A stretch of DNA of 62,146 nucleotides, the filler included, from Dugesia japonica (taxonomy: Eukaryota), in NCBI GenBank assembly GCA_001938525.1. It is 6 parts of 6 records of this genome, joined end to end, with 100 filler letters (N's around TTAATTAATTAA, not from the genome) between each part and the next. Parts side by side here need not be neighbours in the genome. Positions count along the whole stretch, not along the records: positions 1 to 9,796 come from MQRL01619697.1; 5 more parts are not named here. One strand, written 5' to 3'. The notes beneath the pieces are model-generated. The model saw nothing but the letters and a program-made list of their open reading frames with translations. It did no database searches and was not told where the DNA came from. Below, one piece after another: positions 1 through 43,535 of the stretch. Made by a program: the position numbers and the translations under genes. Numbering within the stretch: position 1 is the stretch's first letter; each line of letters begins with the position of its first letter.

Positions 1-144
1 CAGTTAATTTATTTTAAAATTACCACAACATAACATTTTTTAAAATACCACAACGTAATATATTTTAAGAATTTGTTTCTAAAATTTCACTCTCCTTTAT
101 ATATATATATACATCTCAATAAATTTGGCATTTTTGTAATAATT

Positions 145-3100
145 ATGTATAATAAAAAACCTCATGAAATAACTGTAATCAAGTTGATCAACTGGGGATT
201 AGTGTTCAGACCCCAAATAGTAATTCAAGAAATAGAAACAGGCGAGTTTTATCATAATCTCGAAGAAACATTCTTAAAAGAAATCGTTCCCCCCCAGTCT
301 CAAAAGTATATGCGGAAAAGATTGGCGACAATAAGGGTAATGGACCATCTGGAATTGGTGCAAACCGAAGCATCATGACTAACATTAGCCCGAATTGACG
401 AGATACTGGTAGCCACCCAGAAACTCCATGATACAATAAAGGAAGAAGTATACCTAAAGTTGACAAATCGATTGGTGGAATTATTGGAAGTTATAAAATT
501 GATCACTACTGAGGAAAGTGATTGGACAGGATGGTTACCAGTACATTACGATTGGGTAATATCCAATATGGGATTATCGGATTACCAAGTATGGTTGTAT
601 AACCCAGAAGGTAATATGAAACTCACACTCACAGGATTAATGGTAGAAGATCTAGAAACGGCACTCAATCAAGCAGGGTATCCATGTGTAACTGATAAAT
701 ATGTATGTACTCCAAGTGCAATAGTGGATTTTAATGCCAGAAAAAGACATATCTACGATTTTGGAGTAAAACCAGGAGAGGACATTGAAATCGTAGTATT
801 AGACAAACACCCTGGTATTGATTATGATATATGGGTAACGAAAACCGGCAGATCAGCATTGGAAATCATGGGAGAAATGGAATATCTGTATAAACAAGGT
901 GTAGAACCTATAAAAATAAAGATACTTTCCACAGTATTAGGAAAGAAAGATAAACTAACAAAGGAAGAAAGAAAACAGTTACTGATGACACGTAATGATT
1001 TTCTCAGACAACGACTAGAAAGAAGAGAAGAAAAATGCAACATGATAAGAATGCGACAGATGCCGTCAAGGGAAGTTATAGCAATGCGTAAAGTGGAGGA
1101 AATGGTTAAACGGGTGCAAATAGAAAAGGAAAAGTTACCCCGAGAAACATATTGGATGATAATGAACCGAATCTATGACATATATGACGGACTGGAAATA
1201 CCAGAAGAGATTGAGGATCAATGGCTCATGATTAAACAGAAATATGCCGAGGAAATATTAGCCACTACCAAAATTCAGGACTACAAATTATACCTGAATA
1301 TAGGTAAAAATGAACAAGACTTGACTAGATACAGTCGATTAAAGCCTCAAGGAATAACTATGATGGATCTAATGGATGCCCTTACCGATAAGTGGCGAGA
1401 GCATGGATTGAACATGGTACCACCATTTGTAAACGGCAAATTGATAGAAACAGACGATGAAGATAAACATATATTCCAATGTCATGCAAAGCCCGGAGAA
1501 ATATGTGAGTTAGATGTAGAGGAANAGTCACGGACGGTCCAATCACCAGATCTAGAAGAAAGAATGGAGGAAATAACGGAAATATATGTATCCGAAGTAT
1601 TGGCAGGAATTAAGGAACAAGTGAAAGAAAATCAGAAAATACAGAATATTGATAATCTACCAATAATTACTACAAAATCAGTTGAATTTCCAGAAGGAAC
1701 GCCGACAATACGGGATATTAGAAGTAACTACACGAAACACATAACTGAGGAATCTGCCACCTTTCACGCAATTAACGACTTATTACGAGTAACACGAAAA
1801 ACTCGACCGGCGGTGAATATCAAAGTATATTGGAAAATGATGAATAATCTACGGGATTTAGCCACCTATGGACAACTCAGCTTGTGGGCTCAGGCACAAT
1901 GGTGGAAAGAGAAGAACTTATACGAAGAGGAGGTACAAAATACTTCTGCTATATCTGATTACTCCATTCGAGTCAGTCTACTTAACAAAGAAAGGAGCAT
2001 AAAAAAGGTAGATATGATAACCTTGGAAGGATTAACTATCCATCATATTTTGAAACCTATAAAAAAATAGTTATGGCCTAAATCGATCAAGTCTTATAAA
2101 ATGCAGGCGGGAGCAACAATGATCATATTAGCTAAGAAAGAGGATCATATTTTCTTACATGATATCAAACCAGGAGAGGTTACTGATATNNNNNNNNNNN
2201 NNNNNNNNNNNNNNNNNNNNNNNNNNNNNNNNNNNNNNNNNNNNNNNNNNNNNNNNNNNNNNNNNNNNNNNNNNNNNNNNNNNNNNNNNNNNNNNNNNNN
2301 NNNNNNNNNNNNNNNNNNNNNNNNNNNNNNNNNNNNNNNNNNNNNNNNNNNNNNNNNNNNNNNNNNNNNNNNNNNNNNNNNNNNNNNNNNNNNNNNNNNN
2401 NNNNNNNNNNNNNNNNNAACCTCGGAAGATACCGCCAAACCCAAGTTATTACCATTTAAACAAGAATTTGTTGGTCTCTTCAGCTCCCCTCAAACCGAGC
2501 GGATAACAAAGATAATCTCTGATTTCTGTTATTTTCTGGGAAGGATACCCCAGGCAAAATTCTGGAAGGCATTTAATTTGCTAGCAGATCTGTCAAAATA
2601 TACCGAGATAGCAAAGGAGGAGTGTGCTAAGTGGGAATCTATACTCAAATCTTATACGAGTGCAGTTAAGACCAGTGCCAAAGGAGAAGATTTTCAGGTC
2701 ACCATCGAATATAGGACACCCAATAAAAAGCCTAGAAAAGAACCAGAATTGGCCTTAATGCATATACCACATTTTGACAGTACATCAGCAGCAGAATTAC
2801 AAGAAATTATAGAATCATTAGAAATAACTGATAAACAGAGCGGCTATATAATCACAAGTGACCATCTGAGGTTTCCTATCAAGTTTGAGGGAAAACAGCA
2901 CTTAATGAATATTGGGCTAAGACCAGGCGAAAATACCTTTCTCCAAATACAGAAACCCGAAGATTACACTCCAGGTCCGGTAAAATCTATGGAAGAAGTA
3001 TTGCAGCAACTGGAGGAATTATACGAACAAGAAATCAACAGTGGGAAATTGTTTGAAGAAGTCGACGATAAAACAGTCGAGATAAATATTGAGGCATGGG

Positions 3101-4215
3101 AAGCCAGTAAAACTTGGGGAAGTTTGGCACGAGTAGTAATGAAAATACTGCTAACTCTGGAAGAAAACTTGGCATTATTGAGACATGATAAAGTCATACA
3201 ATTAATCCTGAAGTTAAATCAGTTACGAGCTATAAGTCGTATGCCCGAAGATGTGATAAATGCAATATTAACTAAAGCGGTTCGAATGTTAACGAATGTG
3301 GCCGTCGACATAACAATCAAATTTNNNNNNNNNNNNNNNNNNNNNNNNNNNNNNNNNNNNNNNNNNNNNNNNNNNNNNNNNNNNNNNNNNNNNNNNNNAT
3401 TTATGAATCAACAACATAGCCTTGACAAAGAGGAAACCGGAACACAACCATTACTACAGGAAGACGACATAGTACTCTATTATAACCAAGTAATAGAACC
3501 AGACCAAATGAGATTGCCAATGAAATATATGGGTGTTTGGCCAGGAACTAAATTGAAAATTTACGTAACATCAAAAGATGAGGAGAAACGACGACCACGG
3601 GTCTCAGAAGAAAGATGGAAACAAGAAGCCAGAGAAGTAGTGGAATATTATTTAGAGGAAATACATCCACTGGTGTTCGCAAGAGCCAAACTCCCTAAAC
3701 AAGAACAGAAGAAACAACGAGTAGAGATGGTAGCAGCTCTGACCAACACACCAGTTAAAGATGAGAAGCCGGAAGACAACTTACCAAAGTTATTCGAATT
3801 GCTAGTGGGGGACAAACTAATAAAACCAGAAATCATACGGCGATCCAACATAGTCTTACAACAAGATCTGACAGTAGAAGACCTCAAGAAACTACAACGA
3901 TTAATTATGGCCATCAAAGTATCTCATGTATGGGATCCCATTCAATTCAATAAAACTTTGGTTAAATGGAGTAAAGCGAAAATAGGACAAGCCACTCCGT
4001 TGGAAATAAAATTCAGAATAATCGATCCGGAAGGAGATAAAACTACGGTTAAGATACCAGTATATAATACGGTAAAACACTTACGAGATAAGATACCATT
4101 TAAGCCAACCTACAAACTCCTGGACGATGATGGAATAGTCGAAGATACCACTTCAATTGGACTAATGAAAATCGATTTAGTTAAACCTAATACGTTATGG
4201 ATTTTTCCAGAGTGA
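145..4215 (+). pseudogene. Tandem-repeat protein with six ubiquitin-like (beta-grasp) domains separated by helical bundles
   Basis: One frame broken by stops at 376 and 2068 and by N gaps. Recurrent motifs are HIYDFGVKPGED / HIFQCHAKPGEI / HIFLHDIKPGEV / HLMNIGLRPGEN / MKYMGVWPGTK and YWMIMNRI / YWKMMNNL / FWKAFNLL, with a period of about 600-730 nt. Confidence 0.65.
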
Positions 4216-4934
4216 GGTACACTCACTCGGAAAGACGCAGATCCGTATAAGGCAGCAGATAAAACTCGACCGATAATGGGGGAGACCTCAGACATGTTAA
4301 AAGAATATAAACATCGAACAGAAATTGCAGCTAGTCAAATATTAAGACCGACAACAGATCAGTCCGGAAGTACATAAGTATCCCGAGAGATATAAAAAAC
4401 CCCTTAAACAAGCCAGGATTGGGAAGGTGAAATATTCGGATCACCATCAGCAGACGAGTTAGTGGAAAATGAAAACGAATTACAAATTACAAAGTACTCT
4501 CCGCCAGTTAGAAAAAGTGAAGAAATAAAGAGCAAAGAGCTGACAAGAAGTAAGAAATATGGCCCTAGCAAAGTCGACTTAGATGAGGAAGATATATTAG
4601 AAGAACAACCACTGTCACCAATATTGAGCAGAATAGCAAAATAATTGCCAGCTTCAGTTATGGACGATTTAATGGATACCAATCACCCCTTAGAAATGGA
4701 AAATCTTATAGAGACAGAAGAGGAGGAAGTGCCACCAAAACCANTGCGCACCCGAGTAGATGCGGAAACAATTACTGAACCTCGTAATAGAGGTTGACCA
4801 AGAACAAAACGCCCAGGAAATCCTGAGGAGGAAGAAGCATTAAAACAAAAACGATTAACAACATCAATAAACCATCAAACTGAGCGATTAGCAACAGTGT
4901 CACAGGAAAGATATGAAAATTCAACGGATGAGGA

Positions 4935-5345
4935 TATGCCTACAGAAGTAGTAATACGGCAACTATTACTAATGCTTTACCCGGAGCTAAAGATATGGAT
5001 TGGTAAATTTCAGCTATCTGATAGTCTCCGACCACTAGTCAAGGAAATAGAAGCAGCCATTAAGAAATTTCCTGCTACTAAAGGAACTAGTCATGGTACA
5101 AGAGACAATCTAGAAGGGGTAATGGATGAGTTGTTACAGGATTCACCAACAAAAGGAAGGATATAGTAGTATCGATAGCCCATTTAATCAATCAAGCACA
5201 CCTATCAATCGCTAGAAGTAAGCCGTCAAAAAACTTCATTCTTAGTAAATTACCGATAGTGGAACTCATACAAAATAAAATCATACCTTTGATAAAACAA
5301 CAAGGAGGATGGAAAAAATTTATTGAGTTCATATGCCCTAAGCCA
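4935..5345 (+). pseudogene. Bcl-2 family-like domain (one frameshift)
   Basis: BH1-like VMDELLQDSPTKGRI/VVSIAHL spans a frameshift at about 5163. BH2-like LIKQQGGWKKFIEF is at about 5287-5330 and BH3-like LSDSLRPLVKEIE lies upstream, all at Bcl-2-like spacing. Confidence 0.7.
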
Positions 5346-5460
5346 CAGCCATCACATAAAAATGTAACGAGAGTAATAAGGATTGTTCGGGAACAACTAA
5401 ATGAGATCGAGAATGGATGGACGCGTGGACCTCGAGGAAATTCTTGGCAAGCATTAACCA

Positions 5461-7400
5461 ATACTCTTGTTATTCCTAATGATGGGCAGAAGTGAAGCCA
5501 TTTTGGCCTATGACTGCGATGGGATGCAAGTTGAGAAGGAAGTCTTCTCATTAGTAGATACTGAGGAATGTCCAGACGCAAATCCGGAGAAAATTTCACT
5601 CCGTAATAATTCGGTGTACCACTTATATCAGGAGTCAGATTATTACAAGGCTCAAGTGCGTGAATGTACGGTAACCGTAAAGACATTTATATTTCATTGT
5701 GGTTACCACAGTAATACCTCGATAATCGATCCAGGAATCATAAGACATCCGGTACATCTAACGGGAAAACAATGCGATGAAGGATTCACAACTGGTAAAA
5801 TTACTATCAAACATGGAACTCAGGTTGTCGCTAAAAAAGAGCATGTAATTGATCAACCAATAGAAGCAGCCGGAAGTATATCGTCACATAAAGGTAATTG
5901 TGAATATGATACAACCACTATAAGTGGAAAAGTATGGCAATATGCGGTAGCAATCGAAACTTATACGGTGGAACTCAAAGAATACGAAGCATTTTTTGAC
6001 ACCCAGGATTGAACTATGAAAGGAAGGTCATACTGCAAAGCAGCAGATGGAGCATGTAATACAGGTTCGTCAACATTAACATATAAAGTAGATTACCAAG
6101 ATTGCAAGTTAGCACACTTAAAAGAAGCAGTGTTTGACGAATACCAAGGACAACGTGCTATAACACCTATTGATCACGATACAAAGGAGAGTAATCTGAA
6201 AGATAGGATAGATAATTTTAAAGAAACCATAAAATCAGGCCCGAGGTCATACAATCAACAATGGCACACCACACCTACGGTGCTAATGTCCTCAGAAAAG
6301 GATGAGACTATCCGATTAATCAAAGGAAACTCTATGTCTAAATGCGGGCAAATAGTATATAAGACAAATTATAAANGAATATTCGTATCGAAACATCGAA
6401 TAAAAACAGCCCAAGCCGCAGTGATGACCCAAGACTTCAAACTGCACTTATATGCTAATAATAAAATGGACAACTTATTCCACCGGATGCAAGATACTAT
6501 TGGATTGATGTACCATGACCTCATACAAAATGATTGCACCTTAAATAAGGAAATACTGAAGACGAAGTTAGCAATGGCAGTTACGAATCCAGATAGTGTA
6601 ACTCCGTTAATTCCGTTAGAAAAATGATAATTTGGTCGAGTGGTAGGTGAAGTAATGTACCTATACAAATGCAAAGCAATAGATGCGGAATTTTCATCTA
6701 ACNCAAAACCTTGTTACAATGAGATAGAAATCATCCACAACAATGAGAAACGTTATGTACAACCGATTACTCGAATAATATCACCATTGGGATATAAGTC
6801 AAATATCATAAATTGTTCTAATGTATTTGGACCACAATACATAATGACGGATGGTTCATGGATAAGATTTCCACAACGAATGGCAGTAGGAGTCGAACCA
6901 CGGAAATTCTCAATGTACCGATTAAATGGGGGGATGCAATTTACCCCGATCGATGTAAACAAAGGAGGAATTTAAAGCAGAGAAGATCTAGAGAAAGCAA
7001 GGGAATATATGTTGTTCCCAGTCCGAAGGATGCAGATCCTCTCAAATATCGTACAATTAACAAGTGGAACTAACATAGACGGACGTGTAAATTACGACGC
7101 ACTTTTGTCAGCAGATCATTTCCAGAAAGCCACTGAAAACGTCATGCGGAAAATGTGGGGAAGATTTATAAAATTTGGCCAAGCAATGGCAGGATTGTTG
7201 GGAGTCATGCTGATAATTTCAGTAGCACGAGTAGTAATTACCCAGTTGTTTGCATGTTTCGACATATACAAAAGGGAAAAGAAAGTGAATTGGAAACTGG
7301 TAACCAGAATATTCCCTTTCCTAGCAAAAACTATGGTGCTTAATAGTCACTCTAAAGATATCGACAGAGTAAAACGATTTATTCGGAAACTCGGACAAAT
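5461..7400 (+). pseudogene. env: Envelope glycoprotein, class III fusion type (chuvirus/Monjiviricetes G-like, herpes gB-related)
   Basis: Signal-like ILLLFLMMGRSEA followed by AYDC, a Cys-rich ectodomain with HCGYHS, FGRVVGEVMYLYKC, PCYNE..YVQPITRII..NCS and GGI(Y), then a TM segment FGQAMAGLLGVMLIISVARVVI. In-frame stops at 6010, 6625/6628 and 6973. Confidence 0.8.
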
Positions 7401-7984: not shown

Positions 7985-9710
7985 GAATTAAAATAGATGG
8001 GAGATGGGTGATAGCTATTATACAGGAGCAAGTAAGACGTTAGTCCACAAAACAGTATTAAAAGATTATCGACTACTCCGGATAACCATTACTAAAGGGG
8101 TTATCATCACCGCTTCAGGAGAAAAGATCTCACCTGTTGGGGTAGCAATATGTGCAGTGGAGAGTGACGGATTACGCCTGTGGCATAAGCTACAAATAAT
8201 GAACGAATTAACCTTTGACTGTCTTATAGGGTTGGATCTCTTACCACGCATCTGTCCAGAAGGAATTTTTGACTTAAGAAAACTGACGATACGGGAGAAT
8301 CATGAACACGAATATACACTAGTAGGGTATCATAAAACTAGAGTAATAACTAAACAAAAAAGTCCACAACAATGGAATCAGCCAACAACCAATCAACAAC
8401 CACGAAGAAGCAGAGGTGAGCAAAATCCCTCAAACTCCGATCCTGGGAAAACTACCGATACATCCACCATAATACAAGACGATTGGATCAGGTTCCAAGA
8501 ACGGGAACCAAGATGGAAAACCAAAAAACCACCTAACTCCAACCATAAAACTACAGACGTGGTATGTGCAAGTCTCAGTGGCGGACCAGTATTAACTATC
8601 ATGGGTAAAATCAATGGTAGACCTACAACTGCATTATTAGATACAGGAGCAACCATCTCGTTGTTATCAATAGAAGAAATTGCAATAACAGAATATAAAA
8701 ACATATTACCTACTAATACCACGGCAGATGTGGCGAACGGAAGCAGTTTCAAAATTTTCGGGGAACTAGCTTGCGAAGTAGAATATCAAGATAACAAAAT
8801 TAAACACAAAATGATAATAGTGGAAATGGCGGGACAATGCATCTTGGGTACGGATATTCTCCCAATTTTGATGAAAAACGGCATTCTAAACTTTTCCACT
8901 TTACAGTTGCAATCTTTGGAAGGTTATACACATGTTAAAGATCATGAAGTATTTACTACCNNNNNNNNNNNNNNNNNNNNNNNNNNNNNNNNNNNNNNNN
9001 NNNNNNNNNNNNNNNNNNNNNNNNNNNNNNNNNNNNNNNNNNNNNNNNNNNNNNNNNNNNNNNNNNTACCTACATCAGGAAGGTTAACTACGGTCAATAA
9101 AAGTGGAGAAGTACCGGTTAGCTTGGTTAATTTTACTGAAAAGGATATCAAGATCAAGCCAAATTCCAGAATAGGCACATTAACACCCATTGAACCAGAA
9201 ACCAATGAAATTGAGGAAATAGTCGTTGAACCAGTAATCGATAGAACATTAAAAGTGGAAACAGAAACACTATCGGATGATCAGAAACAGGCAATATTAC
9301 AATTATTGGAAGAATTTAGGGATATCTTTGCATGGACTGATGAAGAGCTAGGTATGTGTACCGCTACAATGCACACAATTCTGTTAACAGATGAAATCCC
9401 AAGCAAGCAGAAACCGTATGCCATGTCGATGGAGAAGAAGGAATTTGCGAATAAAGAAACAGCTAAATTAGTGAAAATCGGAGTAATAGAACCCAGTTGT
9501 TCACCATGGCAATCGCCTGTGAACCTCGTAGATAAAAAGGTTGGGACACAGCGATTCTGCATCGATTACAGACGATTAAACGCACAGACTAAAAAGGATA
9601 CATATCCACTACCAGATATCAACGAATTACTTCAATTACTGTGTAACGCCAAAATATTCACTACGTTGGATTTACGAAGCGGGTATTGGCAAATACAAAT
9701 TAAACCCGAA
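7985..9710 (+). pseudogene. pol: pol: two retropepsin proteases, dUTPase-like region, N-terminal half of reverse transcriptase
   Basis: PR1 is RIKIDGRWVIAI/(D)TGASKTLV...DCLIGLDLL with a frameshift at the catalytic Asp. PR2 is ALLDTGATISLL...ILGTDIL. The dUTPase-like stretch is SGEVPVSLVNFTEKDIKIKPNSRIGTL. RT motifs: SPWQSPVNLVDKK, RFCIDYRRLN, TYPLPDI, LDLRSGYWQI. Confidence 0.92.
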
Positions 9711-9796
9711 AGAAAATTAAATACTAAAGAAAATGGGATAAACCCGAGAATTTTTGATAATTTTTGAAAATTTTTTCTTCTCAAATCGTAACAAAA

Positions 9797-19620: not shown

Positions 19621-19811
19621 TACGGAAATAATTATTATTTAATAATTTAAGACAATGGAAAGTGATAAAATTGAATATTAAAATTTAATCAATTCTAAAA
19701 ACACTTATATATTTATCCTATCAAGCATAGTTTGGAGTAGTAAAATAAATGATGTCTCAAAATATTAGTTTTGATTTGGAAAATTAATTTCCATTTGAAG
19801 ATTTACCTAAC

Positions 19812-20760
19812 ATGATGGCAGCGTTAAATACCGATTTTATTACAGAGAGGTTATTGTCAAATATGTTTTGCAGAAGAGATGATATTGAGAAACTCATCAA
19901 AAGGTGCGAATTGTATTTTGAAGCTAAAAGCATCATTCAGGTGAAACAACAGGAGAGATTAGTCTCTTGTTTGCTAGATGAAGATTTGTTGGAAGAATAT
20001 ATAGACGTTGAAAAATGTTGAGGTTTCCAGGCTCATTTACGTATGGCATTTGAGAAAGAGAAATATGTTATCAAATACCTTCAACATTTGATTAATTGCA
20101 AGCGTTGAAATGAAGAGATTCAAGTTATTTTTAAAAATATAAAAGATTTACTAAAAAAATTATTTACAAATAAAGATTTTACTGAAAAGAAATGGTAGCA
20201 AAGATGCTAGTATATTGTTCAGATAACAAAAATGTTGAAGAAGAAGTGACTCTGAGGAAACAACAATATATATAGAAGAAATTGAAGAAACAATAACGTT
20301 AGTAAATCGAGTAGAAAAAAACAGAGATTGAGTTGATGCAGTCAGAAGTTACGCGAGAGTTACAAATCGAAATTATCAGAAACCTGTAAATCATACAGTG
20401 AATAGACATGTAGAGCAAAGAAAGGAAAAACAAAATATCAAATACTGGTTATGTCATAAGATCGGTCATACTAAAGCAAATTGTCCGATGAAAAAAGGGG
20501 TAGAGTGCTGGAGTTGTCATAACACAGAACATATAAGTCGAGATCGTCTAAATAAAAAACCAACAAAATGTTTTGGCTGTGAAAATGTTGGTCATATTAG
20601 AAGGTTATGTCAAGAAGTGAAATTTAAACGATGTGGTAATAGTGGACATAGGGCAGAAGATTGCTACACAAATTGTATATGTAATGAAATCAAAATCGAG
20701 AAGATTGAATTGGAAAATTGGTTAAAAGTTAGAAAAGAAGAGAAAGATCAAATAAAAGCA
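19812..20760 (+). pseudogene. gag: Gypsy gag remnant with multiple CCHC zinc knuckles
   Basis: CHKIGHTKANC, CWSCHNTEH, CFGCENVGHIRRLC and RCGNSGHRAEDC. It follows an LTR-like end ..CTAACA and PBS-like TGATGGCAGCG, and is homologous to 43536-44100. Confidence 0.8.
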
Positions 20761-21399
20761 TTCAGATCAAATAAAAACCACATAATAATGAAACTCTTCT
20801 GGAGAATATTAAACAACATGTTTGGAATTTATATAATGGTATCCATTAAATAACAAACAAAACAACATAATAATAACTATTTTTTAATTACATCCAATCA
20901 TTTCATCCTTAAATTAAATTTTTTATTTGATGATTACACATTGGCATTTATCGCATAGACAAAATTCTTTTTCTGTATTATTGTTACAAACTTTGATTAC
21001 AACTAAATACACAGGGATTAAGTTTATAATCTTACGTCAGTGAAGAGAGGGTTAGTACAGTCCGCTACTATCTACCTTCATTTGTCTTTCATCAACGGAA
21101 TATGAAGAAAAAGAAGATAGAAAATTGACTATCAAACCATGCAAAGCATTGTCTCCACGTAATTGAAATTGAAAAGCACAGCCCAGTTCAATAAATATAT
21201 TATATTAAAATTTTAAAAGGAATTCCTGCTGATTTGGCAAATGTTTTAGATGATAAATAAAATTCTTCAGTAGACATTTTTAATGGAGTAGTCAGAGTTT
21301 TATAATAATTTGTAAATAATTATTCGTTTTATGTTTTCATTGTAAACAGATTGGTTTTCATCTGTATTTTTTAATAAATTGGTTCATGAGAGTTAAATG

Positions 21400-22763: not shown

Positions 22764-22918
22764 TGTTATCTAATATCAATAATTAAAACCTAAATTTTGA
22801 TCTAAGCTTTTATATTAANNNNNNNNNNNNNNNNNNNNNNNNNNNNNNNNNNNNNNNNNNNNTTAATTAATTAANNNNNNNNNNNNNNNNNNNNNNNNNN
22901 NNNNNNNNNNNNNNNNNN

Positions 22919-25900
22919 GGTTGTGGAATAGATTTTATTGAAAATGGAAAAATAACATCGGTATATATTGGATGACTAATTTTATATGGACTTTTAGAGT
23001 ATATTCTGAATCTGTTTTCAATAGATGTATCAAAATCTGGAACTTCGTATTCGAAAATATTTCCTGGCAAGTGAACTATAGGTATCCAGTCCTTTGTTTT
23101 ACTTGTCCATTTTTCAAGAACAAATGATTGTTGTGGTTGATATTCATAGCTTCCGGGCATTTCCCACATTACTTTAAATGGTTTAACAGTTTGTGATGGA
23201 TAAATATTAATAGGTTGAACTAAAATATCTTTCTCTAAATTAGGCATTTCAATTGGTGCTGATCTTGCAGATGAACCACAACCCTCAGAATTAAATGGTG
23301 TGATTTGTACAACCCAACTGTGATCAGGATTTAATTGTGGAAGTATACACCGGTTTTCATTAGGACCGATTGTTGCGATACTTGTTTCTTCTCCTGTTGT
23401 CAAATCTAAAAGTAAAACTTTATAACCTTTAATGGGTGATCCTCCATCATCCATTGATTTAAACCATTTAGCAAATAATCCAAATTCTTCTGGTTCCACT
23501 CTTACATTTAATACAGATAATGGTTTTGATAATTTCATTTGTGGTTTGACAGAGCGGTCCATTAACATGGGCGGAAGGGCTTTGCCAGATTTATCATATG
23601 GAATAACTCTAATCCATATCGGAGTGTCTGCATTCAACCCATACATTAAATGATTTCGTTTAGTTCCTCTAACATCAGTTTCATATTCCCACTTTTTGAG
23701 ATCAGGATTCCATTTTTCAACTCTGAATTTATCGATTTCTGTTGTTGGGATGTAGTCATTCCACGAGACTTCTAAACTGGCTGAAGTTAACGGTTTAACA
23801 ATTAAAGGATTTTGATTTTTAAGTTCTATTTCTGTAACTGCAGTTGGTTTGGGATAATACTTTTCTGATTTTGGTAAACCATAACTTCCATAAATGTATT
23901 CTTTATCTATCCAGGAAAGATTTTCCGGTTTCAAATTATAATTCAAACCAGGACTAGAACTGTAATCGGGTTTGAAATTATTATTATAAAAGTTATCTTT
24001 TTCATATGATTTTTTAATTCTTGGTTCGAACTTTAAAATATTCTNNNNNNNNNNNNNNTCTTCATGTTCATCATATACATTGGGTAATCTAACTTTTATT
24101 GGCAAACTTCTTAAATTATTAGTGTCATCATATACCGTCAACTTTAAATCTCGAGGTTTTCTGTTTGACAACAAAGATAAAGGAATACTATAAGTACTTA
24201 AAGAATCTGGCAAATCAATAACTGGTTTCCAAACATTTTCATTGCAAATTTTTTCTTCAATTAAAACATGGCGATTAGAAGTATCTAATTGATTCGGTAA
24301 ATTCCAATTTAAATCGAGGAATTCATGCTCTTTATTTAATCTTAATTTGAAATTTGAAATCGGCGCCAATGGTATTCTTTCAGAAGTCAAAACTGGATTC
24401 GGTAAATTTCTTGGTTCACTAATTGCGTCAGGATACAAAGCTGAAACACGGAAATCATAATATGTGTTTGGTTTAAGGTTATCAACAATATATTCAACTG
24501 GCTTTGATCTATCTTTATCCTTTGGTTTGTAGGTGAATTCAACTGGTTGCCAATTATCAGAAGAAGAACTGAGATTTTTCTTTTCAACTTTATATGATTG
24601 AACATCATTCGAAGATGGAGAAATCCATGATAATATTACTTTATCATCATTAGGTTGTTTATTTATTGCTTTAAGACCTTTAATTGATTCTGGTTTTATT
24701 ACTTTAACAAAACTCTCCTCGCTAATTAATGGTTTACTTAACCCATTTGCATTTCTTGCAAACACACGAAAAAAGTATTCTTCATTTGGAAGAATATCAC
24801 TAAATATTGCTTCAGTGTCTGGAATTTCTAAATAAGATTTCCAAGGTCTTCCTCGTCTTTTAAATTCAATTTGATAACACGTTGTAGGTAATCCGCCATC
24901 GTCAATAGGAGGTTTCCATGAAATAACACAGTCACTATTGACAGGTTTCATTTTTATCGGTCCTCTTGGTTGACTTGGGACAGTCGATTGTTTTTTCGGT
25001 TGAATGGAAAATTCGTTTTCTAAAGGCTCTGATATTCCATTTTTATTTTCAGCAACAATTCTAAAATTGAATTTTGTGCCTTCCAATAAATATTGAGCAG
25101 TAAATTCCAAAGGTTGACCAATAATATTGGGAATTTTTCCAATTTCTTGCCAACTTGTACGAAAATGTTCTCTTTTGTAAATTCGATAAGCGGTAATTGG
25201 TGTGCCTCCATCAAATAGCGGCTTTTTCCAAGCTAATACACAACTATTGTTGTCAATATCGGTAATAATGAGAGGACCTTGAGGAGCAGTTGGTACAGCT
25301 GAAAATAATATAATTAAATANNNNNNNNNATTACATTACATAAAACAAAAACTATCAAAAAATATAGTTCAACATTTCCATTTTATTTACTTATTAATGA
25401 AGGTTGAATATTAATTATATGATTAAAAAGGTTTTATTAAGATTATGGAAATAAAAGAAAAAAATATTCCTTGTAATTTGAATCTAATATAAAGTGGTAA
25501 CGTTGACCGTAAACCTTTTTTACATACATACAAAAATATAATATAAAAACAATTCAAGACTGTGATGATGAACACTAATTTCAAAAAGTTTGGTTTAAAA
25601 CATTAGTTTATTAACAATAACCATGTAACAATATCTAAAAATTAATAGATGACCTTTGACTAAATTTCTTTCTTTAAAAGTCAGATAGGGCTTCAAATCC
25701 ATTTCGAAAATGAAATGAGTAATTCTCGTCAAACAAATCTAACAGTGATTATATGATGGTTAAGTAAAACTAAAATTACATTTACACGTATAAGAAAATC
25801 TGATATTAAACTTCATATTAAAATAAAATTGAGGAAAAATGTATTTCAAAGTAACTCAATATCTATTTAAATATTAATTTTATAAATTTTCTCTAGAAGA

Positions 25901-28543
25901 GACAGCGGACCAGACTTTAGACAATCCTGAACTAAGCCGATTATTTTCAGACACTCTTTGTAAAGAGATGAGTTTTATACAATTATTATCCTTTGATATT
26001 AATTCGAAATACACCCTCTATTTACTAAAAAGTATGAAAGATTTAAGAAAACCGAGTAAAATTTAAAACCAACATAAACACAATAAAAATATAATGATTT
26101 CTATGAATTGCAAATCACTCCACACTTTTACTTCGACTTGGAGAACGTAAATGGATTCGCAAAGGAGCGTAAATCCATTCCAAATTTTATCTTTCTGAAA
26201 AATGGCAATAACCCCTGATCATTGAAATAAAAAATTCCAAAATGTATCTGATTTTTCGTAGCAATGAATTTTTATAAGTTTATTTATTAGAAATGATTAA
26301 TTTTGATAAAATGAAAGCTAACTTGTTACTAATTCAGGGGATACCGGTTCAAGTGTTGATACAATATCCCCGATTCCATATTGATTTACTCCAGCTACTC
26401 CAAAGTAATATTTTTTATCTGGTGATAAATTACCAATAGTAATTTTGTCGAGATAATGATCAACATTAGATATTTGAACCCACTGAGAATCAGGTTTATC
26501 TTCTTTCTGATAAATTAAGTAGCTATTAACATGATGTTGATGTTTCTGGCCATGTTTACACTCATTTGGAATTACCCATTGTATAGTAACACTAGAAGAT
26601 CCTTTTCCAATAACCTTTACCCATGCAGGAGCATCAGGAGCGAAATGGGCTTCTTCAATTGAGAAATCGTCTGATTGTAGCAATTCTCCAGTTCCATATT
26701 GATTTGTTGCTGAGATACAAAAATTATAAATTTTTCCTGGTAGAAGATTTTTAGCACGAATCGAATTTTCCCCATATGGTACTCTGCCAATTTTATACAT
26801 AACTGGACTATTTTTATATTTAATGAAACAATTAAAATGCGAAATAGGTGCATCTCCTTGATCAGTTGGATTTTTCCACGATATCAAAACTGAAGTGTCT
26901 GTAAAATCATTAAAATTTATTGGTGGATTTGGTTTATCTGGTGTACGAAATGGATTCACACAAACAATAGGTTCAATTGAGCATAAAGGAGAACTTTTTC
27001 CTTGATCGTTTTCAGCAGTTACTCTAAAATAATACTGATTACCCGGTTTAAGATTTTTTGCAACATAATTGCATGTTTCGGCATTAGGTGTGCGGCCAGT
27101 ATATTTCCAATTTATCCCATCAATACTATGTTCAATACTGTAACTTGTTGGGTTTCCGTGTAAAGATGGTTTCCATTTCAATTCAATGCTATTAAAAGAA
27201 TCACATGTTCCAACTAATGGACCAACAGGCTGAGACGGTATAATTGGATGTGTTCTCAAATTGAAAGGATTAGAATATAAAAATGAACCTGGTCCTAAAG
27301 AGTTATGTGCATTAACTCTGAAAGAATAAATTTTATCTGCATCTAGAATAGGAGTATTAAAAAATAGGTCGCTGGCTTTGCAATTTCCGAGATTCTCCCA
27401 GTCTTTATTATTGGTTTTTATTTCAACATCAAATTTATCAATTAACAAGCCACCGTCATCAAGAGGTAAATTCCACGATAAACGTAAATTATTATCTGAA
27501 GTCAATAAAAGTTTCATTGGACCTTCAGGAGCTGATGGTACTTTCTTCGGTCTATTAAAAGAAATAGATTGTTCAGATTCCAACCAATCACTTGGGCCCA
27601 CTTCATTAACTGCTTGTACTCGGAATTTATATGCATATCCATCTTTTAAACCACCTACATCATATTCAAGATTATCATTTTTTAATCGAGCAAGAGGAAT
27701 CCAGTCATTTTTCCCTCCAACTTCCTTAATTTGCAAATTGTAATTTTCAATAGGTTTGCCACCATCTAATTTTGGAGTTTTCCATTGGACTTTTACAGAA
27801 GAACTATCAAGTGATGTTGAAATCAAGGGTCCTTCGGGTTTTGACGGACATTCTGAAACAAAAAAAAATAATGACGTTACAAAAAATTTCCAATTTTTAA
27901 GTTAAATATTAATTTAAAAGTTTCTTACCATATGGACTCTTCAGAATAATCGGATTCAGAGCATTCAAATATTGACCTTCTCCGTTAATATTAGAAGCAC
28001 ACACTCTAATTCGGTATGGAACACCTGGAACTAATCCTTCGATAATACTTGATGTATTTATTGGATTTATTTTTATTGGTTGACTAAATCGATTTTTCTT
28101 CTCATCTTTATACTCTAATAAATAGTTTCTTAAAGGTTCATCGTGATCAGAAATTGGGGGTTTCCAGTTTACTTTCACGGAATTTGGCGAAACTTGACAC
28201 AACTCTAACGGTCCTTCCGGTATGTCAGGAACATCTGTTACTTGAAGATTTACAAGCACTTCATTCTTTCCAGCTTTATTAGAAGCTACAATTGCATAGG
28301 TTCCAGTTGAATCTTGTTTGACATTTGGTAAATTAACATAATAATTATTTCCATATTGTTCAACTTTCAACGTTTCCAACGGAATCGATTTTATGGGTTT
28401 TTTGATTATTTCTAATATTGGCTTTACATCTGATTGAATATATAAAGGAACTCGCAAATTTGAACCAGGACGAATTTTAAAATCTGAAGGCCCAATTAGA
28501 GATATTTCTGGTGGATCTGTTAAAAAGAAAAATTTATCACAAC

Positions 28544-28608
<65 letters not shown>

Positions 28609-28658
28609 NNNNNNNNNNNNNNNNNNNNNNNNNNNNNNNNNNNNNNNNNNNNNNNNNN

Positions 28659-28694
<36 letters not shown>

Positions 28695-30055
28695 CATGAA
28701 TTCTTAAATTTCACTTACTTATTGCAATTGGTACTGTTTCTTTAATAGCTTCTTTATACTCTCTAAGTTGTTCAATCAAATCTTTAGGACTTTTTAAAGA
28801 TTCAGAGACTTCGGAAACAATTTTCGGTTTTACCGCTTCTAAATAAATGTTTATTATTATTTATTTTAATTATTACACCCAATACCCTGTTTTAATATAA
28901 TCCATTCAGTTGGCAATGATGGTGCACTTTTACCATCGACATTTTTAGCCAGTACTCTAAATTGATATTTACATTTATTATTCAAATTAGTAACATTTAA
29001 ATAGGGTGTTTTGATTGGTTGTATTGTTATGGGAGTCCATAAATTCGTCATATCATCTTTTTGCTCTACAATAAACATGATAGGTGATGTAGTGGTTGTT
29101 TGAAGTGGATTCCACTTTAAATGAACCTTGTCCAATCCAATATCTTTTACTATTAGGTTTTCTGGCATAGATGGAACATCTGTAAAATATATCTATTCAT
29201 AAAATAATAAAAGACAAAGACATACCAATTATTTGTTGCAAAGAAATAGGTTGGTCTATCTCTACAAATTCACTTTTACCGATAGCGTTTTCAGCAGCTA
29301 CTCTGAAACTATAGGTTCCGTTAGGTGTTAAATTAAATACGTTTATATTATATTTTCTATCCCCAGAAGTTGTTCCACATCGAGTCCAATTATTGGGACT
29401 TGAACCGATAATTTCACGCTTTTCAATTATATAATTAACTATTTTTGAACCACCATCGTTAGTTGGAGGGCTCCACTCAACAATAGCACAATCAGACATG
29501 TTAGAAACTGCTTTAGCATTTTCCGGCGGAAATGGTCTTGTGAGAACATTTAAATGAATTTTAGCTGAGTATCGACCTGCTGAATTTTCTGCTACAATTT
29601 CATAATCACCGGCATCTTTTGGTGTCGTTGAATCAATAATCAAATTATATTTGTTTAAAGATTTTTCATTTAATTCATGTTTGTTGGACGATGAATCAAT
29701 AATTTTATTATCTTTCAGCCATTTAATTTTACATTCTGGATGACCTGTAACTGTGGCTGATAATGTTGATTTCTGTAATTCAGGTATTGATAATCCCATC
29801 GATGTTTTACTATCCAATTTAATCGTAGGTTTTTCTGAAAATGTTATTAAAAATTTTTGATTACATAAATTTAAAAATTTACCTTCTATTTCAACTTTAC
29901 ATGAAGTTTCAGCTTTCCCGAATTGATTTTCTAGTTTGCATAAATAAACACCTTCGTCATCAATCTTACATTTTTCTAATGTTACTGAACTTTGATTTTT
30001 TCCCGAGTTTACTTTTATTTTAGTCAAACCTCTGATAACTCGATTGTCTTTCAAC
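22919..30055 (-). CDS. Twitchin/titin/projectin-like Ig and fibronectin type III repeat muscle protein, partial, multi-exon
   Basis: Repeated Fn3 motifs (WxPPxxDGG, YxFRVxAxNxxGxS) and Ig motifs (DxGxY). Inferred exons with GT-AG boundaries: 29883-30055, 29226-29834, 28886-29179, 28719-28838, 27929-28516, 26323-27852, 22919-25298. Confidence 0.9.
28544..28692. repeat. (AAT)n microsatellite in an intron
   Basis: Directly visible; contains an N gap. Confidence 0.95.
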
Positions 30056-30306
30056 CTATTAAATAATAAAGTCACAAATACAATATTGTATTATCCAGAC
30101 TTAAACTAATCTAAAATCTCATCTTATTAATAGAAATTTTTCAAAAATATTAGAAAATTAAAATATGAAACCTTTTCATTCAAATTTTTACAAATTTGTA
30201 TCAATTTCTGTTTAGAAACCATTTACCATTAAACATGACAACTGTAATTTCACCAGTTTTTACATTAATTATTGTTTAATCATTCTTAGAAATTCTTGCT
30301 TTTTAA

Positions 30307-31612: not shown

Positions 31613-32361
31613 AATATAATAATATTCTGTTTTGATTTACGCATTTTAATTTTTAATGTCGATTTATTTACATTAATAAATATATGATTAAAATGTTTAA
31701 TTTTCTTTAATTTCCTGTTAAAGACTCAAATTTTCGACATTAGTCTAATTCAGGGTTTCACTTTCAGGTTCTAAGTTTTTTTATCTATTGAAACTATAAA
31801 ATTTCAATCAATGGTTAAGTCCAGCAATTATTCCAGTAATAATTGTAATTGTAATTGTAAAAAGTATATAGTATTAAAAATTGCAGAATTTCAATATCGT
31901 ATATTTAACAAAATACTCTAAAGATCTAAAACTCATAAATATTAGCGGAAATGTTGCTTTTCATTCTTCATTTAAAGACTTTGGGATAACGCTGCATTTA
32001 GATGTTGGAATTTAATAAAAGACTACGTTAAGGGTTCCTAACCTTTTTGTAGTGCGATTGCAATCGGATTTGAAAATAAATAAATAAAAGTATTATGTCC
32101 ATTATTATAATATACATTTTGTAACATATATTTCCAATAATATTATATATTTATTTAAAAAATCGAATTAGAACGATCTTGGACACTACATTTTATTTGC
32201 TAATTTTTCACAGTTTGAAATGTAAGATGATAATCTCAATCGTAAACAATCATCTAGGTTGNNNNNNNNNNNNNNNNNNNNNNNNNNNNNNNNNNNNNNN
32301 NNNNNTTAATTAATTAANNNNNNNNNNNNNNNNNNNNNNNNNNNNNNNNNNNNNNNNNNNN

Positions 32362-34234
32362 TATGTTTATGAAGTAGATTTAGAATATCCACCTGAGATT
32401 CATGAGAAAACAAAATATTTTCCATTAGCACCAGATAGAATAAATATTACACAAGAGATGTTAAGTAATTATCAAAAGAGTTTTAATAGAAAATTATCAA
32501 AGAAAAATGAAAAGCTAACATTAAATTTTGGAGATAAAGAAAATTATATATGTTTAGGAAGTACTTTAGATTTATATTTAAAACTTGGAATGAACATTAA
32601 AAAGATTCATAATAAATATAAAATGCCAGTAAAAACATGGTTAAAAGATTATATATTATTTAATATTGAACAAAGAAAAATAGCTAAAAGAAATAAAGAT
32701 GAATTTGGAGATTTCTTTTTTAAATTATTAAACAATTCATTTTATGGTAAAACATTAGAAAATATTAAGAAAAGATGTAATGTTAAAATTGTAGCGAGAG
32801 ATGAAGACATTCAAAAGTTAGCAAGTAAACCAACATATTTAGGATGTAAAGTGTTTTCAGAAAGATCTGCAGCAATACATTTAGAACAAACTAATTTAAA
32901 ATATGATAAATAAGTTTCAATATATAGGTTTCACAATTCTTGAACATGCGAAAGAAGTAATGTATGATTTTGTATATAATCAATTAGATCCTTTAATTGG
33001 ACATGATAATTATAAAATACATTACAGTGATAGTGTAACATTNNNNNNNNNNNNNNNNNNNNNNNNNNNNNNNNNNNNNNNNNNNNNNNNNNAATTAGAT
33101 CCTTTAATTGGACATGATAATTATAAAATACATTACAGTGATAGTGTAACATTTGACACTCCAATAATCTTAAGGAAAAATAATAAAGTTGAAATTAAAA
33201 AGATTTCAGAAATAAATCAATCTTACATAAAAAATTATTATAATGACAAATATTATTCTTATCCTGAAAATTATGAGATATGGACAAAAAATAATTGGGT
33301 TAAATTAAATAAATTAATTAAGCACACGATAAATAAAAAGATGTATAGAGTTAGAACTAAAATGGGGATTGTAGATGTTACTGAAGATCATTCATTATTA
33401 AATGAAAATGGATAAGAAATTAAACCGATAATTTAACATGTGAAACTAAATTATTACATAATAAAATTAAAAAGTTAATATCTTTAAATAAAAATATTAC
33501 ATGTGAGATTTTAAATAAAATAATTATAGATAAAGAATCTTTAGCCAAAGCATATTATTTGGGAACACTCTTAGAAATGAATTTAATTATTACAGAAGAT
33601 TTAAAACTTGATGAATCAACTTAAGAAATTGAAACTAATATGCAAAGTGTAACATTTTTAAGAGAAAGTATTGAAGATGTATATGATATCGAAACTGAAG
33701 ATGGATCATTCAATTGTGGATTTCATTTATTAATAAAAAATACTGATTCTATGTGTTGAGATATTTGGAAGAGATAATTTAGAAAATTTAAAATTAATAT
33801 TAGGAGATGAATTATTTCAGATGAAAGACGAAATGCCTAATGATGAAATATTAAAATTAATTTGTTTAAAAGCTAAATCATATGCTTTTGAATTTAATAG
33901 AAATGAATTAATAAAGAAACATAAAGGTGTTCAACAATTTAATAAATTTCTTAAAAGTGATTTTGAAAAAGTTATATACGATCCAAAAGAAACAGTATTA
34001 GGTGAAAATTATTCTATTAAATCTTTCTTACATGATTTAAAAATTAATCAACAAAGTAAAATTGCTTTCACTGGATTTGATGATAAAAGATTAATTGAAG
34101 ATAATGGAGAAATAACTTATGGTCATCATTTTAGATATTATTGTGAAAAATGTAACTATTATCATTTAATGTTAAATAAAATTAATAACATTTTAATTCC
34201 AAGAAATAATTCACCATGTATATTTTTCTTATAA
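32362..34234 (+). pseudogene. polB: Polinton/adintovirus-type family B DNA polymerase, C-terminal half, intein-containing
   Basis: YEVDLEYP..IH..FPLAP, FFKLLNNSFYGKTLEN, IGFTILEHAK, split YSD|TDS, MKDE, LKAKSY, HKGV, FDDKR. Confidence 0.9.
33143..33741 (+). other. Mini-intein (Hint domain) in PolB motif C
   Basis: Block A SVTFDTPII, block B VDVTEDHSLL, block F DVYDIETEDGSF, block G LIKN|T. About 200 codons with two stops and one frameshift. Confidence 0.9.
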
Positions 34235-34249
34235 GAAATGAGTGGAGAA

Positions 34250-35660
34250 ATGGATAATCTATTTCTATCTTTCTTTTTTAATATGAATTAAACCACCTCT
34301 AGATACGTAATATGTAAATGTTACTGCATTATGATTAATATTAATGATGTTATTAAATCTTTAATTGTAGAATAACCTCTTATCTCCAAATAAAGTTTAG
34401 TATTAATATTTACTGTTAAATTAATAATAAATGGTTCATCGAGACGATAATAAAATTTATTTGCAATTTTTACCATTTCTTATAAAATCTACATTAAGTA
34501 TAGATATTTCAGATGGAAAATAAAACCCTGGTAAATCCCCATCTTTGGAATGAGGAATGAAAATATTAAATATTAAATTAGAATGAATATCAGTAATTAT
34601 AAAAGGTAAGTAATTATCAATTAACACTCTTAAACTTTTATGTATTGATTCAGAAAAGGTTTCTTTATATTGTTTTAATAAAAAATAAATTCTATCCCCC
34701 AAAAGTTTGTGTAGTCTTGGTTTTATTCTTTCAATTTCATCAACAATTTTTAATTTTAACAAATTAACACTTAATTCATGTAAATAAATTTTTTTTGGTA
34801 AAATTATTTCAACATAGTTTATAATACTATCTTTATTAATTTCACTGCTTTCATTGTAAATTTTTATATTACTATCTCTAGGTGTATTTTATGAAAATGA
34901 TTGTGTAAAATGATTAATTTTAATGATATATGTAAATTTTTCAATTTCACAATAACCCTCTATATTTATACAAAGTTTTTCATTAATGTTTGCATGTAAA
35001 AAATAGAAAAATATCTTCAAGATAGAAATATTGTTTAGTTTTCAAAGTTTTCATTTTACCCTTTCTTTCAAAATCTAAATTATATACATACTTATCCATA
35101 ATAGAAAATTGTGCAAGAATTTCATAATAGATAATTGGAAATATTATGATAACACTAGTCCTAAAAACATAAAGTAAGTAATTATCAATTAACCCTTTTA
35201 GACTTTTAAGTGTGGATTCGGAAGTATTTTCTTTATATTCTTTTACTAAAATATTAATTCTATCAATAGAAATTTTATGTAGTTTTGGTTATATTCTTTC
35301 AATTTATTTAAATATTGCTTCAGGAATTTTTATAAATTCTATAGTTAAATTATGTAAATAAATTCCTTTTGGTAAAATTATTGAAATAAAGTTTATATTA
35401 GTATCTTTATTAATTTCGGTGCTTTCATTGTAAATTTTTATAATATTATCTCCATTACGTTTAATATATAAAAATGATGATGAAATTTTATTAATTTTAA
35501 TAGTGTAATTAAAAAAATTAATTTCACAATAACCCTCTATATTTATAAAAATTTTTCATTAATCTTTGTATGTAAAGATATAAAAAAGGGTTCTTCAAGA
35601 TAGAAATGTTGTATATCTTTCAAAGTTATCATTTTACCATTTTTTATAAAATCACCTTGA
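34250..35660 (-). pseudogene. Unknown decayed ORF(s) made of diverged tandem units of about 585 nt
   Basis: Unit starts DFIKNGK / DFERKGK / DFIRNGK near 35655, 35075 and 34490; IERIKPRLHK..LIDNYL occurs twice. Confidence 0.55.
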
Positions 35661-38600
35661 ATTATTTCAGAATTCGGCATTTCATCCTTCATCTGAAATA
35701 AATTATTTCCTAATATACTTTCTAATTTTGTTAAATTTTCTCTACTTTTTATCTCAACAAAGATACAGTCAGTATTTTTTAGAATTAATGGAAATCCACA
35801 GTTAAATGATACATCGCTTGTTTTAAACTTTCTCTTAAAAATGTTATGCTTTAAACATTAGTTTCAATTTCTGATTTTGTTTCTGTAAGTTTAAAATCTT
35901 CTGTAATAATTAAATTCATTCCTAAAGATGTTCCCGAATAATATGCTTTAGCTAAAGATTCTTTATCTGTAAATGTTTTATTTAAAATATCATCTGTAAA
36001 TGTTTTATCTGTAATAGAGAATATTTTATTATGAAGTAATTTAGTTTTACTGTTTACATCTGTTGGTTTAATTTGTTCTCCATTTTCATTTAATAGTGAT
36101 TCCCATCTTTGTTCTCACTCTATAAATCTTTTTGATTGTTGAATGTTTAATTACTTTGTTTAATTTACTTCATCCACCTTTGGTCCATATTTCATAATTT
36201 TCTGGATAAGAATAATAATTTACCATCAATATTTTTTGTGTAAAATTGATTTATTTCTGAAATCTTTTTATTATAAATTTATTATTCTTTCTAAAAATTA
36301 TTAGAGTGTCCTTTGTCACACTATCACTGTGATGTATTTTATAATTATTTTCTTCTATTAAAGGATCCATTTTATTGTATATAAAATCATATATTACTTC
36401 TTTAGCATGTTCAAGAATTGTGAAACTTATACAAGGAAATTTATTATATCTTAATTTGCCTTTTACCATATGCATTGCTGCAATTTCGGCTTCGTGATTA
36501 TCATTTGTTGTTAAAATTTTACTTGATTTAAAATTTATTTTAGATGCAAATTTTTGATAATCTTTGTCATTGTCAACTATTTCTATGTTACACCTATTTC
36601 TAATATTTTCTAGTAATTTTCGATAGAAAGCATTTAACATTAATTTATAAATATAATCACTGAAAACATCACTATTTATTTTAGCTTCTTTTCTTAAAGC
36701 TAATTATTTATGAACATAATCCTTGAACCATGGAGATGTTCTCATTAAAATTGTCTTGTGTACTTTTATTAATTTCATTCCAAGTTTTAAATATAAATCT
36801 CAAGTGGAACCTAGAAATACATATTTTTTCTTATCAAATTGATTTAGTGTAAGTTAAATATTATCTTTGGATAATTTCTTATTAAAACTCTTTTGATAAT
36901 TACTTAACATGTCTTGTGTAATATTTAATCTTTCTGGACATAATGGAAAATATTTTGTCTTATCATGTATTTCTGGTAGATATTCTAGGTCGACTTCATA
37001 AATGTAATTCATTGTATCGTTTGCTTCAGTATAAATCAAATCTGTGGATTTATACATTTCCCCTGTTGGTAACGGTCGTGTCATGCATGCTCCATATAAA
37101 CTGTTTTGATCAATATATTTAATAAATGTTTCTTCAAATAAACTTTCAATATATTCATCGGGAATAAACTCATGTATATTCATCATTTCTATGAAATCGT
37201 CATACTGTCGTTTATTTAATTTTCTATTTACATCTCGTAATTTATTATAACTAAATACTTGTCTTTGACCTAATTCTCCAGAATATCCACCTCTAATACC
37301 TTCTTCAACTACTAAGAAAGTATCATAAGTTTCGGATTTCACATATTTTAGTTAAACAGCCGCATTTAACATTCCTGTTTCCAAAGCATATCCTGGTGCT
37401 GAATATGAATAACATGGATCTAATCTAAGAATATTATTTAAACATGAATCACGAAAGTTTTCTAAGAAATCTGCAAGGATTAAAACATCAAGTTTCATAT
37501 AGTGCATAATGTAATCCCACATGTTATTGAAATCCTGAGAGACGTCATTTAGAAATGCCGCATATTCTTCTTCACTCATTTCTTTTTGTGTAAGTGTATT
37601 GAAAAAACTTGTCTCGTTGGAATCGTATCGGATTTTAACAATTGTTCTACATCATTAATATTTAATCCTTTTACATACTCATATGGAAAATGTGCTTTCT
37701 TTGGTAATATATTAAATGAATTTAATATTGGATAATTACCTGATTGTGTTAATAGTTTTCCCATTACTTCTATTGATGTGAATGGAAGTAATCTTGCTGA
37801 ATCCAGAAATCTAACATCTTCATATTGAAATGAAATGTAATTATCAGTGGCGTGTGGTATTATTTTTTTTACCTTTGATGGAAATTTTGTCAATAATTCT
37901 CTTAAGAATAAATGGTTATCATATCCTGATGCGTATTGAAAATAAAATAGTATAAATAAATGTTTGTCTGATAAACGATCATTTATGTTACATCATTTAC
38001 ATCATTTACATGACCCACGAAATTCTCCATTAAAATGATTATGATCTTTTACTGGGGTTCCATATAGTTTTTTCTCACAATATCTACATTTTGTGTCTGG
38101 TGTAAATTCTGGATGATTGGTTTCTGTGTATTCTTTTATTAATTTATTTTCCTTAATATCTTGTAATTTATTATTAATATCTTCTAAAAACGTAAAGAAA
38201 TCTCTATAAATATTTTCACCTGAAAATTAGTAATATTTACTTTCAAATAAATCTGTGTAATCACTTTGAAGATAAATAACTAATGATAATGCTTTTTGTT
38301 TTTTAGCAAGTGTATCTGTGTAAGCCTCAAAATCTCCAAGAAGTATAAATGGAATTTTATTTTTTTGATAATGCTTTTTAAAATAATAATAATCTTCATA
38401 TTGAAAAAAAAATGTTATTTGGTTTATGTCTAATGCTCGCTTCTTGATGATTCATTAATAATTCTTCACTGGAATAACATTTCATACATCGGATACATGG
38501 ATAATTTCTATTTCTATTCGCAGCGAAAAATGCACCTAAATCTCTACACAAAATATAATGATCCTTATACACTAAAAAATTACATTTAATTCCTCTGGTA

Positions 38601-39661: not shown

Positions 39662-40059
39662 TATCTATAGAAATAATGAAATCATACAGCTACTAAAAAG
39701 GGAAGTAGAAAGATAGTGGCGGGCAACCTCTGCACACATGCGGTACCCCTACCCCCGACGTGATGAGATTATTACATAACTGAGGTTGTATTTTTCTAAT
39801 GAAAATAGGCGGTGGCACACATTTGTGTGCGTAACATAATGTAAATAATCTTGTCGCGATAGAATTACGTAAGAGAGGTTACTTTTTTCCTGTGTATTTA
39901 GTTAGGAAAAATTATTTGCACACAAATTGTGTCATGAGATTAATTTCATCGGTGAAATTTTACGTAATAGGATTAAGAGAGGCTACTTTTTTCCTGTATT
40001 TAGTTGGTAAAATTTTTTATGGGAATTTTTTAAAGAATCCGTGCAAATTGTTCATTTTG

Positions 40060-43080: not shown

Positions 43081-43535
43081 TTATAAGATAATTTTTTAAA
43101 ATAACAGATCTTAAATTTTTTATCTTTCAAAACGGAATTTAGTAAAATCAAAAGTATATTTAAAATTTTATCAAGAAAAAAAACTATAAAATAAATTACT
43201 AAAATTTAAGGATTTTGTAAAATATAAAATAAAATGAATAAAATATTTTTATTGTGATGCATTTTTTAAAATCAAATATATTTTAAAAAGAATAAAATAT
43301 AAAATGAAATGAATAAAAGATGTTATTTAATATATTTTTTAAAATCAAATATAATTTAAATATAAAAAAATATAAAATTAAAAATTTTGATATTTTCCGT
43401 TTTGAATATGAATTTTTAAATTTGTTTGTTTAAATGATATAGTAATGATGTTTTAGTTTTTTATATTAATAAATCGTTGTAATGAATTCGAATTATGATG
43501 CTAATGATTCGAGGAGTTTTCAAAACCCAACTAAC

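Follow-up and report, generated by a model that had tools for sequence, protein, structure and literature searches.

A long, decayed gypsy element of the planarian Dugesia japonica, which carries env and follows the layout of Burro, very probably contains a divergent Bcl-2-like domain that is broken in its reading frame. In this reading, which we hold with considerable confidence, the copy described here is dead, and intact relatives are likely to make a giant polyprotein and likely to dampen cell death. The element lies at one end of the window, by which is meant the whole stretch of DNA that was analysed (62,146 nucleotides, joined from six records). The original prediction had placed in an LTR-type retroelement a Bcl-2-like domain whose BH3, BH1 and BH2 follow in order, and had a frame change near 5163 divide it; both statements are borne out, the first by a profile alignment of 105 columns at 93% that beats its controls and the second by the use of frames +1 and +3. 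Every peptide that it quoted is present at its place in these frames.

The element is distinguished from the A+T-rich remainder of the window (20-30% G+C) by a G+C content of about 38% and a purine-rich (+) strand over bases 1 to about 9760. Frame analysis reveals one long decayed reading frame from base 34 to base 9765, about 3,200 codons in total with three N gaps included, in which env precedes pol (Table 1). Frame +1 runs from 34 to 5163 and contains eight stops, frame +3 is used from 5163 to about 5457, frame +1 returns up to 8040 with four stops, and frame +3 is used again from 8040 to 9765. The 12 in-frame stops, together with the several frame changes, show that the window copy is dead. 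The env matches to PF24664 have E values of 3e-29 to 8e-14 and keep the order of the profile; the protein is a fusion glycoprotein of the mononegavirus/gB type, its start resembles a signal peptide, and hydropathy places its membrane anchor near 7183-7239. Downstream, the dUTPase-like match to PF00692 reaches 18.1 bits, below the cut-off of 22, and the reverse transcriptase (RT) match to PF00078, also below cut-off, spans positions 2-89 of the 205 in the profile. No second copy of the element was found within the window.

Table 1. Features of the retroelement, in coordinates of the window
Feature	Position	Strand	Remarks
Polyprotein upstream part	34..4935	+	Frame +1, at least 1,600 codons, internal repeats
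Bcl-2-like first piece	4936..5163	+	Frame +1, ends at BH1-like ELLQDSPTKGR
Break	5161..5166	+	Frame +1 stop; domain continues in frame +3
Bcl-2-like second piece	5163..5345	+	Frame +3, core helix, BH2-like LIKQQGGWKKF
Linker to env	5346..5457	+	Short and polar
Second frame change	~5458	+	+3 to +1; other copies differ in length at 5458
env	5458..7353	+	PF24664 Monjiviricetes_fusion, four consecutive pieces, four in-frame stops
Aspartyl protease	8601..8861	+	Frame +3, PF13975 E 5e-12
dUTPase-like remnant	9102..9191	+	Between protease and RT, PF00692 E 0.0024
Reverse transcriptase start	9531..9716	+	PF00078 E 6e-6, ends shortly before gap

The upstream part of the polyprotein is repetitive. Five copies of a G-x-K/R/W-P-G motif stand at nucleotides 763, 1486, 2161, 2914 and 3532 of the (+) strand; these tail-like repeats (763-3560, +) are spaced roughly 620-750 bases apart and are accompanied by longer internal repeats, self-alignment pairing 1132-1653 with 2542-3093 (E 2e-6). 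We take the five repeats to look like the C-terminal halves of ubiquitin or SUMO. Pfam matched no family above cut-off in 34..4935 and did not match PF11976 there, and a PDB sequence search with two upstream pieces returned nothing credible as a ubiquitin-like relative.

The first part of the Bcl-2-like domain lies in the frame +1 stop-to-stop stretch 4798-5166, with a GTG at 4897 and an ATG at 4936, whose product reads ...LSDSLRPLVKEIE...VMDELLQDSPTKGRI before the stop at 5164. The product of frame +3 (5130-5495) reads IVVSIAHL...IIPLIKQQGGWKKFIEF. In BH1 the E, D, G and R are kept while the N and W of NWGR are replaced by T and K, giving TKGR; in BH2 the I, GGW and F are kept and the first W has become L, and the R of the BH3 helix is also retained. 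The NWGR motif of BH1 is thus not found in the domain, which for the replacement of its N and W is filed as Bcl-2-like and not as a canonical member. BH1 and GGW stand 46 residues apart, a distance that falls inside the range of 43-48 by which members were picked. Core columns are hydrophobic at 20 of 29 positions against a background of 41% (p 0.002), the other nine being polar. The stretch has the base composition of the element itself. No C-terminal membrane anchor follows just after BH2, the best 19-residue hydropathy after the break being 1.27; the next hydrophobic stretch is the start of env (hydropathy 1.41), about 40 residues on.

Bcl-2 domains can be collected by a pattern that combines the BH1 and BH2 motifs. 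From 102 such motif matches, reduced to 70, a profile of 43 natural domains was built after near-duplicates had been removed; seven sequences judged by eye not to be Bcl-2 and rows with fewer than 90 upstream residues were dropped, and the 120 loci of an earlier scan with a looser pattern were excluded. All 30 of the test alignment rows matched PF00452. With an X placed at the break, the query was aligned by hhalign over 105 collinear columns (nucleotides 5011-5331), which extend from the BH3 helix beyond BH2, at a probability of 92.8-93.3% and a score of 42.5. The resemblance of the repaired translation to the Bcl-2 family, as originally predicted, is upheld by this comparison, the score being above all controls. 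It was reached by none of 85 full shuffles (maximum 18.2), none of 103 shuffles in which GR and GGW were fixed (maximum 26.3) and none of 89 windows of 141 residues taken elsewhere in the element and in a host gene (maximum 19.3), and the reversed read scored 16.1. When GR and GGW were masked the same 105 columns were recovered at a score of 25.6, with no shuffle out of 90 reaching it (maximum 15.2). The halves align in their proper order, and swapping them retains the BH2 match and drops the first half. Compared singly with the Bcl-2 alignment A1 by hhalign, the second half matches BH2 (probability 87%, E 4.5e-6) and the first half matches the BH3-BH1 part over 50 columns (E 0.0014, probability 17%).

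HMMER scored the joined stretch at 10.8 bits, against 67-163 for members, a value reached by one of 2000 motif-kept shuffles; with the motifs masked the score was 1.0 bit, which 35 of 2000 shuffles reached and which is not significant. The selection of the profile by NWGR plus GGW favours queries that bear GGW, a bias that the masked and motif-kept controls reduce but do not abolish. Neither half, scanned alone, matched a Pfam family, and a PDB sequence search with each half gave nothing. The second piece, searched against 1.84 billion representatives, returned a single match, an unrelated repeat protein, which was rejected; no relatives were found in metagenome contigs, and no relatives of env in viral contigs. 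The match is real but remote, and for this reason the domain is called Bcl-2-like.

Single-sequence models predict three helices in the first half, at the places of BH4, BH3 and pre-BH1 (pLDDT 71), and a succession of helix, helix, GG turn and helix in the second (pLDDT 66). The helix pattern predicted for both halves fits Bcl-2. Fold searches with the half-domain models gave best Z values of 3.3 and 6.2, with no Bcl-2 chain among the 50 matches listed, and Foldseek gave no match to the half-domain model of the second half built without an alignment. Set beside the Bcl-2 family (PF00452) of animals and DNA viruses, the domain has in common the order and spacing of BH3, BH1 and BH2, the G-R pair, GGW and a predicted all-helical pattern. 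It departs from that family in its TKGR, in the L of BH2, in its want of a tail anchor, in being embedded in a polyprotein and in scores far below those of members.

The copy described here is one of many. Contigs placed on 4600-5800 numbered 2,580, 2,066 and 2,110 in three DNA runs, most of them 80-95% alike, and more than 2,000 contigs per run point to a high-copy family. Among the best 40 of 293 differences, those in the domain fall at third positions of frame +1 in five of seven cases before the break and at third positions of frame +3 in five of seven cases after it (p 0.004). This bias independently marks frame +1 and then frame +3 as the coding frames, and it fits past selection on a protein read in exactly these frames. 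None of the best-supported 40 of 293 differences lies within 5131-5173, and there is a weak hint that TKGR is shared across copies of the family. In a quarter of one RNA run, 14 of 13.6 million reads fell on 4600-5800, none of them 95% alike, and no read fell on 5092-5419.

The rest of the window contains a variety of other sequences. A twitchin/titin-like host gene of several exons, rich in FN3 and Ig-like domains, occupies 22867-30090 (-), with an fn3 E of 1e-45 for one exon. Zinc-knuckle (gag-like) remnants lie at 20332-20853 (+) and 43611-44036 (+) (PF00098 E 4e-6), and the 70% likeness of 19794-20000 to 43518-43724 suggests another small retroelement family. An intronless, rhodopsin-family GPCR-like frame is found at 44955-45929 (-) (7tm_1 E 1e-5) and an EndoG-like exon of a non-specific endonuclease at 52048-52407 (-) (PF01223 E 2e-4). 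Decayed pieces of DNA transposons, together with a Penelope-like GIY-YIG remnant (PF01541 E 0.004), lie at 54336-58388 (-) and 60783-61250 (-); by eye we take the transposon pieces to be Tc1-like and hAT-like, and Pfam gave no match on two of them. A Polinton-like, protein-primed DNA polymerase is present as two decayed inverted copies, at 32314-34234 (+) and 35400-39664 (-), with weak matches to PF03175. In the (+) copy an intein at 33.1-33.7 kb separates YSD from TDS, and its N-terminus matches TIGR01445 above cut-off (E 1.2e-9). This intein has a TEDH motif and ends at about 33640-33735 in VYDIET...KN, which we take to be intein C-terminal motifs and which has no C-terminal profile match; it is short, no endonuclease was seen in it, and the same insert occurs in the (-) copy. 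Intein invasions of polinton polymerases have been suggested in a passage of PMC11161782, and the intein may merit more attention.

Dugesiid planarians harbour giant, gypsy-like LTR retroelements named Burro and GYPSM1 (Jurka 2007; Grohme 2018; PMC6431247). Burro-type elements exceed 25 kb. The Burro polyprotein has about 4,900-5,100 residues (Arkhipova and Yushenova, PMC6431247) and is described as one open frame. A BCL2-like motif, to which Grohme 2018 drew attention, stands immediately ahead of the in-frame env; a Ubi2/SUMO-like motif lies upstream of BCL2, an env homology that matches mononegavirus fusion proteins lies between BCL2 and the protease, and a dUTPase lies between protease and RT; decayed fragments with stops and frameshifts are reported from one species (all PMC6431247). 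Excerpts of PMC8532177 and PMC11410931 describe Burro as expressed and giant. The window element and Burro share the Bcl-2-like domain, env, protease, dUTPase-like domain and RT in this order, the last two below cut-off here, as well as a very high copy number; the ubiquitin/SUMO-like region before BCL2 may have its counterpart in the five tail-like repeats. The assignment is made by the described layout of Burro. The window copy differs from Burro in being truncated at both ends, as it runs off the start of the window and stops at a gap: gag, LTR, RNase H and integrase are absent from the window, and the part of the element that is present has no Pfam match to BIR, ankyrin or MATH.

The original prediction had further supposed that Bcl-2 mimics do not occur in LTR retroelements; this premise was wrong, because a BCL2-like motif before env had been published for Burro (PMC6431247). 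The presence of such a domain before env in Burro-type elements is therefore not novel. The GAG-ENV-POL errantiviruses of the HSV/gB type from Platyhelminthes, Nematoda and Bryozoa also place a gB-type env before pol in a Ty3/gypsy context, as here, according to the accessible text of PMC13524379. The long cargo region of the window element is Burro-like and unlike the errantiviruses portrayed there, and the main text of that article contains neither 'Burro' nor 'BCL'. No functional test of the Burro BCL2 motif was found in the literature; a 2026 Burro1 paper, beyond the present scope, may cover it.

The Bcl-2-like domain may have been captured from the host. Intact relatives would synthesise it in one frame, after the ubiquitin-like repeats and ahead of env plus pol, and it could be released by signal peptidase at the start of env together with the element's own protease. 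Lacking a tail anchor, the domain may be attached to the membrane through the env signal sequence, and cleavage there could leave it membrane-bound. The G-R pair of BH1 lines the BH3 groove, the role of the Gly being drawn from excerpts of PMC8998228, and the retained pair would allow host BH3 motifs to be bound. Since the kept pair suggests a BH3-binding groove, the likeliest role is that apoptosis is held off in cells that express the element, and analogy, too, makes an anti-apoptotic function likely. The window copy itself would make no such protein. Another Burro cargo, the BIR-RING protein of Burro1, reportedly shields stem cells against caspase-mediated death (as cited in PMC13465017). 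A more elaborate proposal is that a family-wide TKGR variant of BH1, tailless and held at the ER membrane by the env signal once cleaved, acts beside the element's IAP, so that apoptosis is blocked at two steps, perhaps to the benefit of host stem cells; we regard it as speculative and quite unlikely in this full form.

Some poxvirus proteins of the Bcl-2 fold bind non-BH3 partners, and the domain here could likewise be Bcl-2-derived but non-apoptotic, serving as a structural spacer or binding a partner other than BH3. We consider this somewhat unlikely. The loss of the N and W of BH1 and the W of BH2, an identity of no more than 26% to even the closest of the 43 profile members and the lack of its own tail anchor all agree with such a use, but the G-R pair lining that groove for BH3 (PMC8998228, in excerpt) has been kept, and the element family has other apoptosis-related cargo (PMC6431247; PMC13465017, in part).

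A divergent Bcl-2-like domain is also preferred to a chance resemblance built from amphipathic helices and a GGW, which is very improbable. BCL2 has been annotated independently at the same place in Burro (PMC6431247). The halves lack Pfam and PDB sequence matches and the masked-motif HMMER score is not significant, as chance would have it, but the hhalign score exceeds those of all shuffles, also when masked, and those of the 89 other windows.

Retroelements use programmed frameshifts, and the break might be one, switching between a short upstream protein and a full Bcl-2-env-pol product; this we find extremely improbable. Most of the summed depth at the break carries no length difference, as a programmed site would have it, but contigs of other copies do differ in length from the window copy there in all three DNA runs (3, 2 and 3 contigs, amounting to 5-15% of the summed depth). 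Some other contigs cease matching at 5163, and the remaining depth may represent contigs clipped there or copies sharing the break. Moreover, the break cuts BH1, a second change 295 bases on restores frame +1 and is also variable among copies, and the 12 in-frame stops are those of a decayed copy, Burro being one open frame (PMC6431247). We read the break in the window copy as the result of decay, or of a slip in the assembly, rather than as a programmed event.

That a Bcl-2 gene of the host, or a processed pseudogene of one, came to lie inside the element by chance is likewise extremely improbable: an ATG does stand at the start of the domain (4936), and its likeness to host-type domains is so slight that its origin could be masked, but thousands of contigs span the stretch together with its flanks and env, its composition is element-like, its location is as in Burro, and it lacks the intron that in animal Bcl-2 genes usually follows GGW (PMC8998228, in excerpt). 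On these points the stray host gene, the chance match and the programmed frameshift are all rejected.

As found, the Bcl-2-like domain and its surroundings add another dead example of an arrangement already in print. Should the domain be functional in intact relatives, retroelement and large DNA viruses would have arrived at the same strategy by convergence, and the survival of planarian stem cells would depend in part on the cargo of a transposon.
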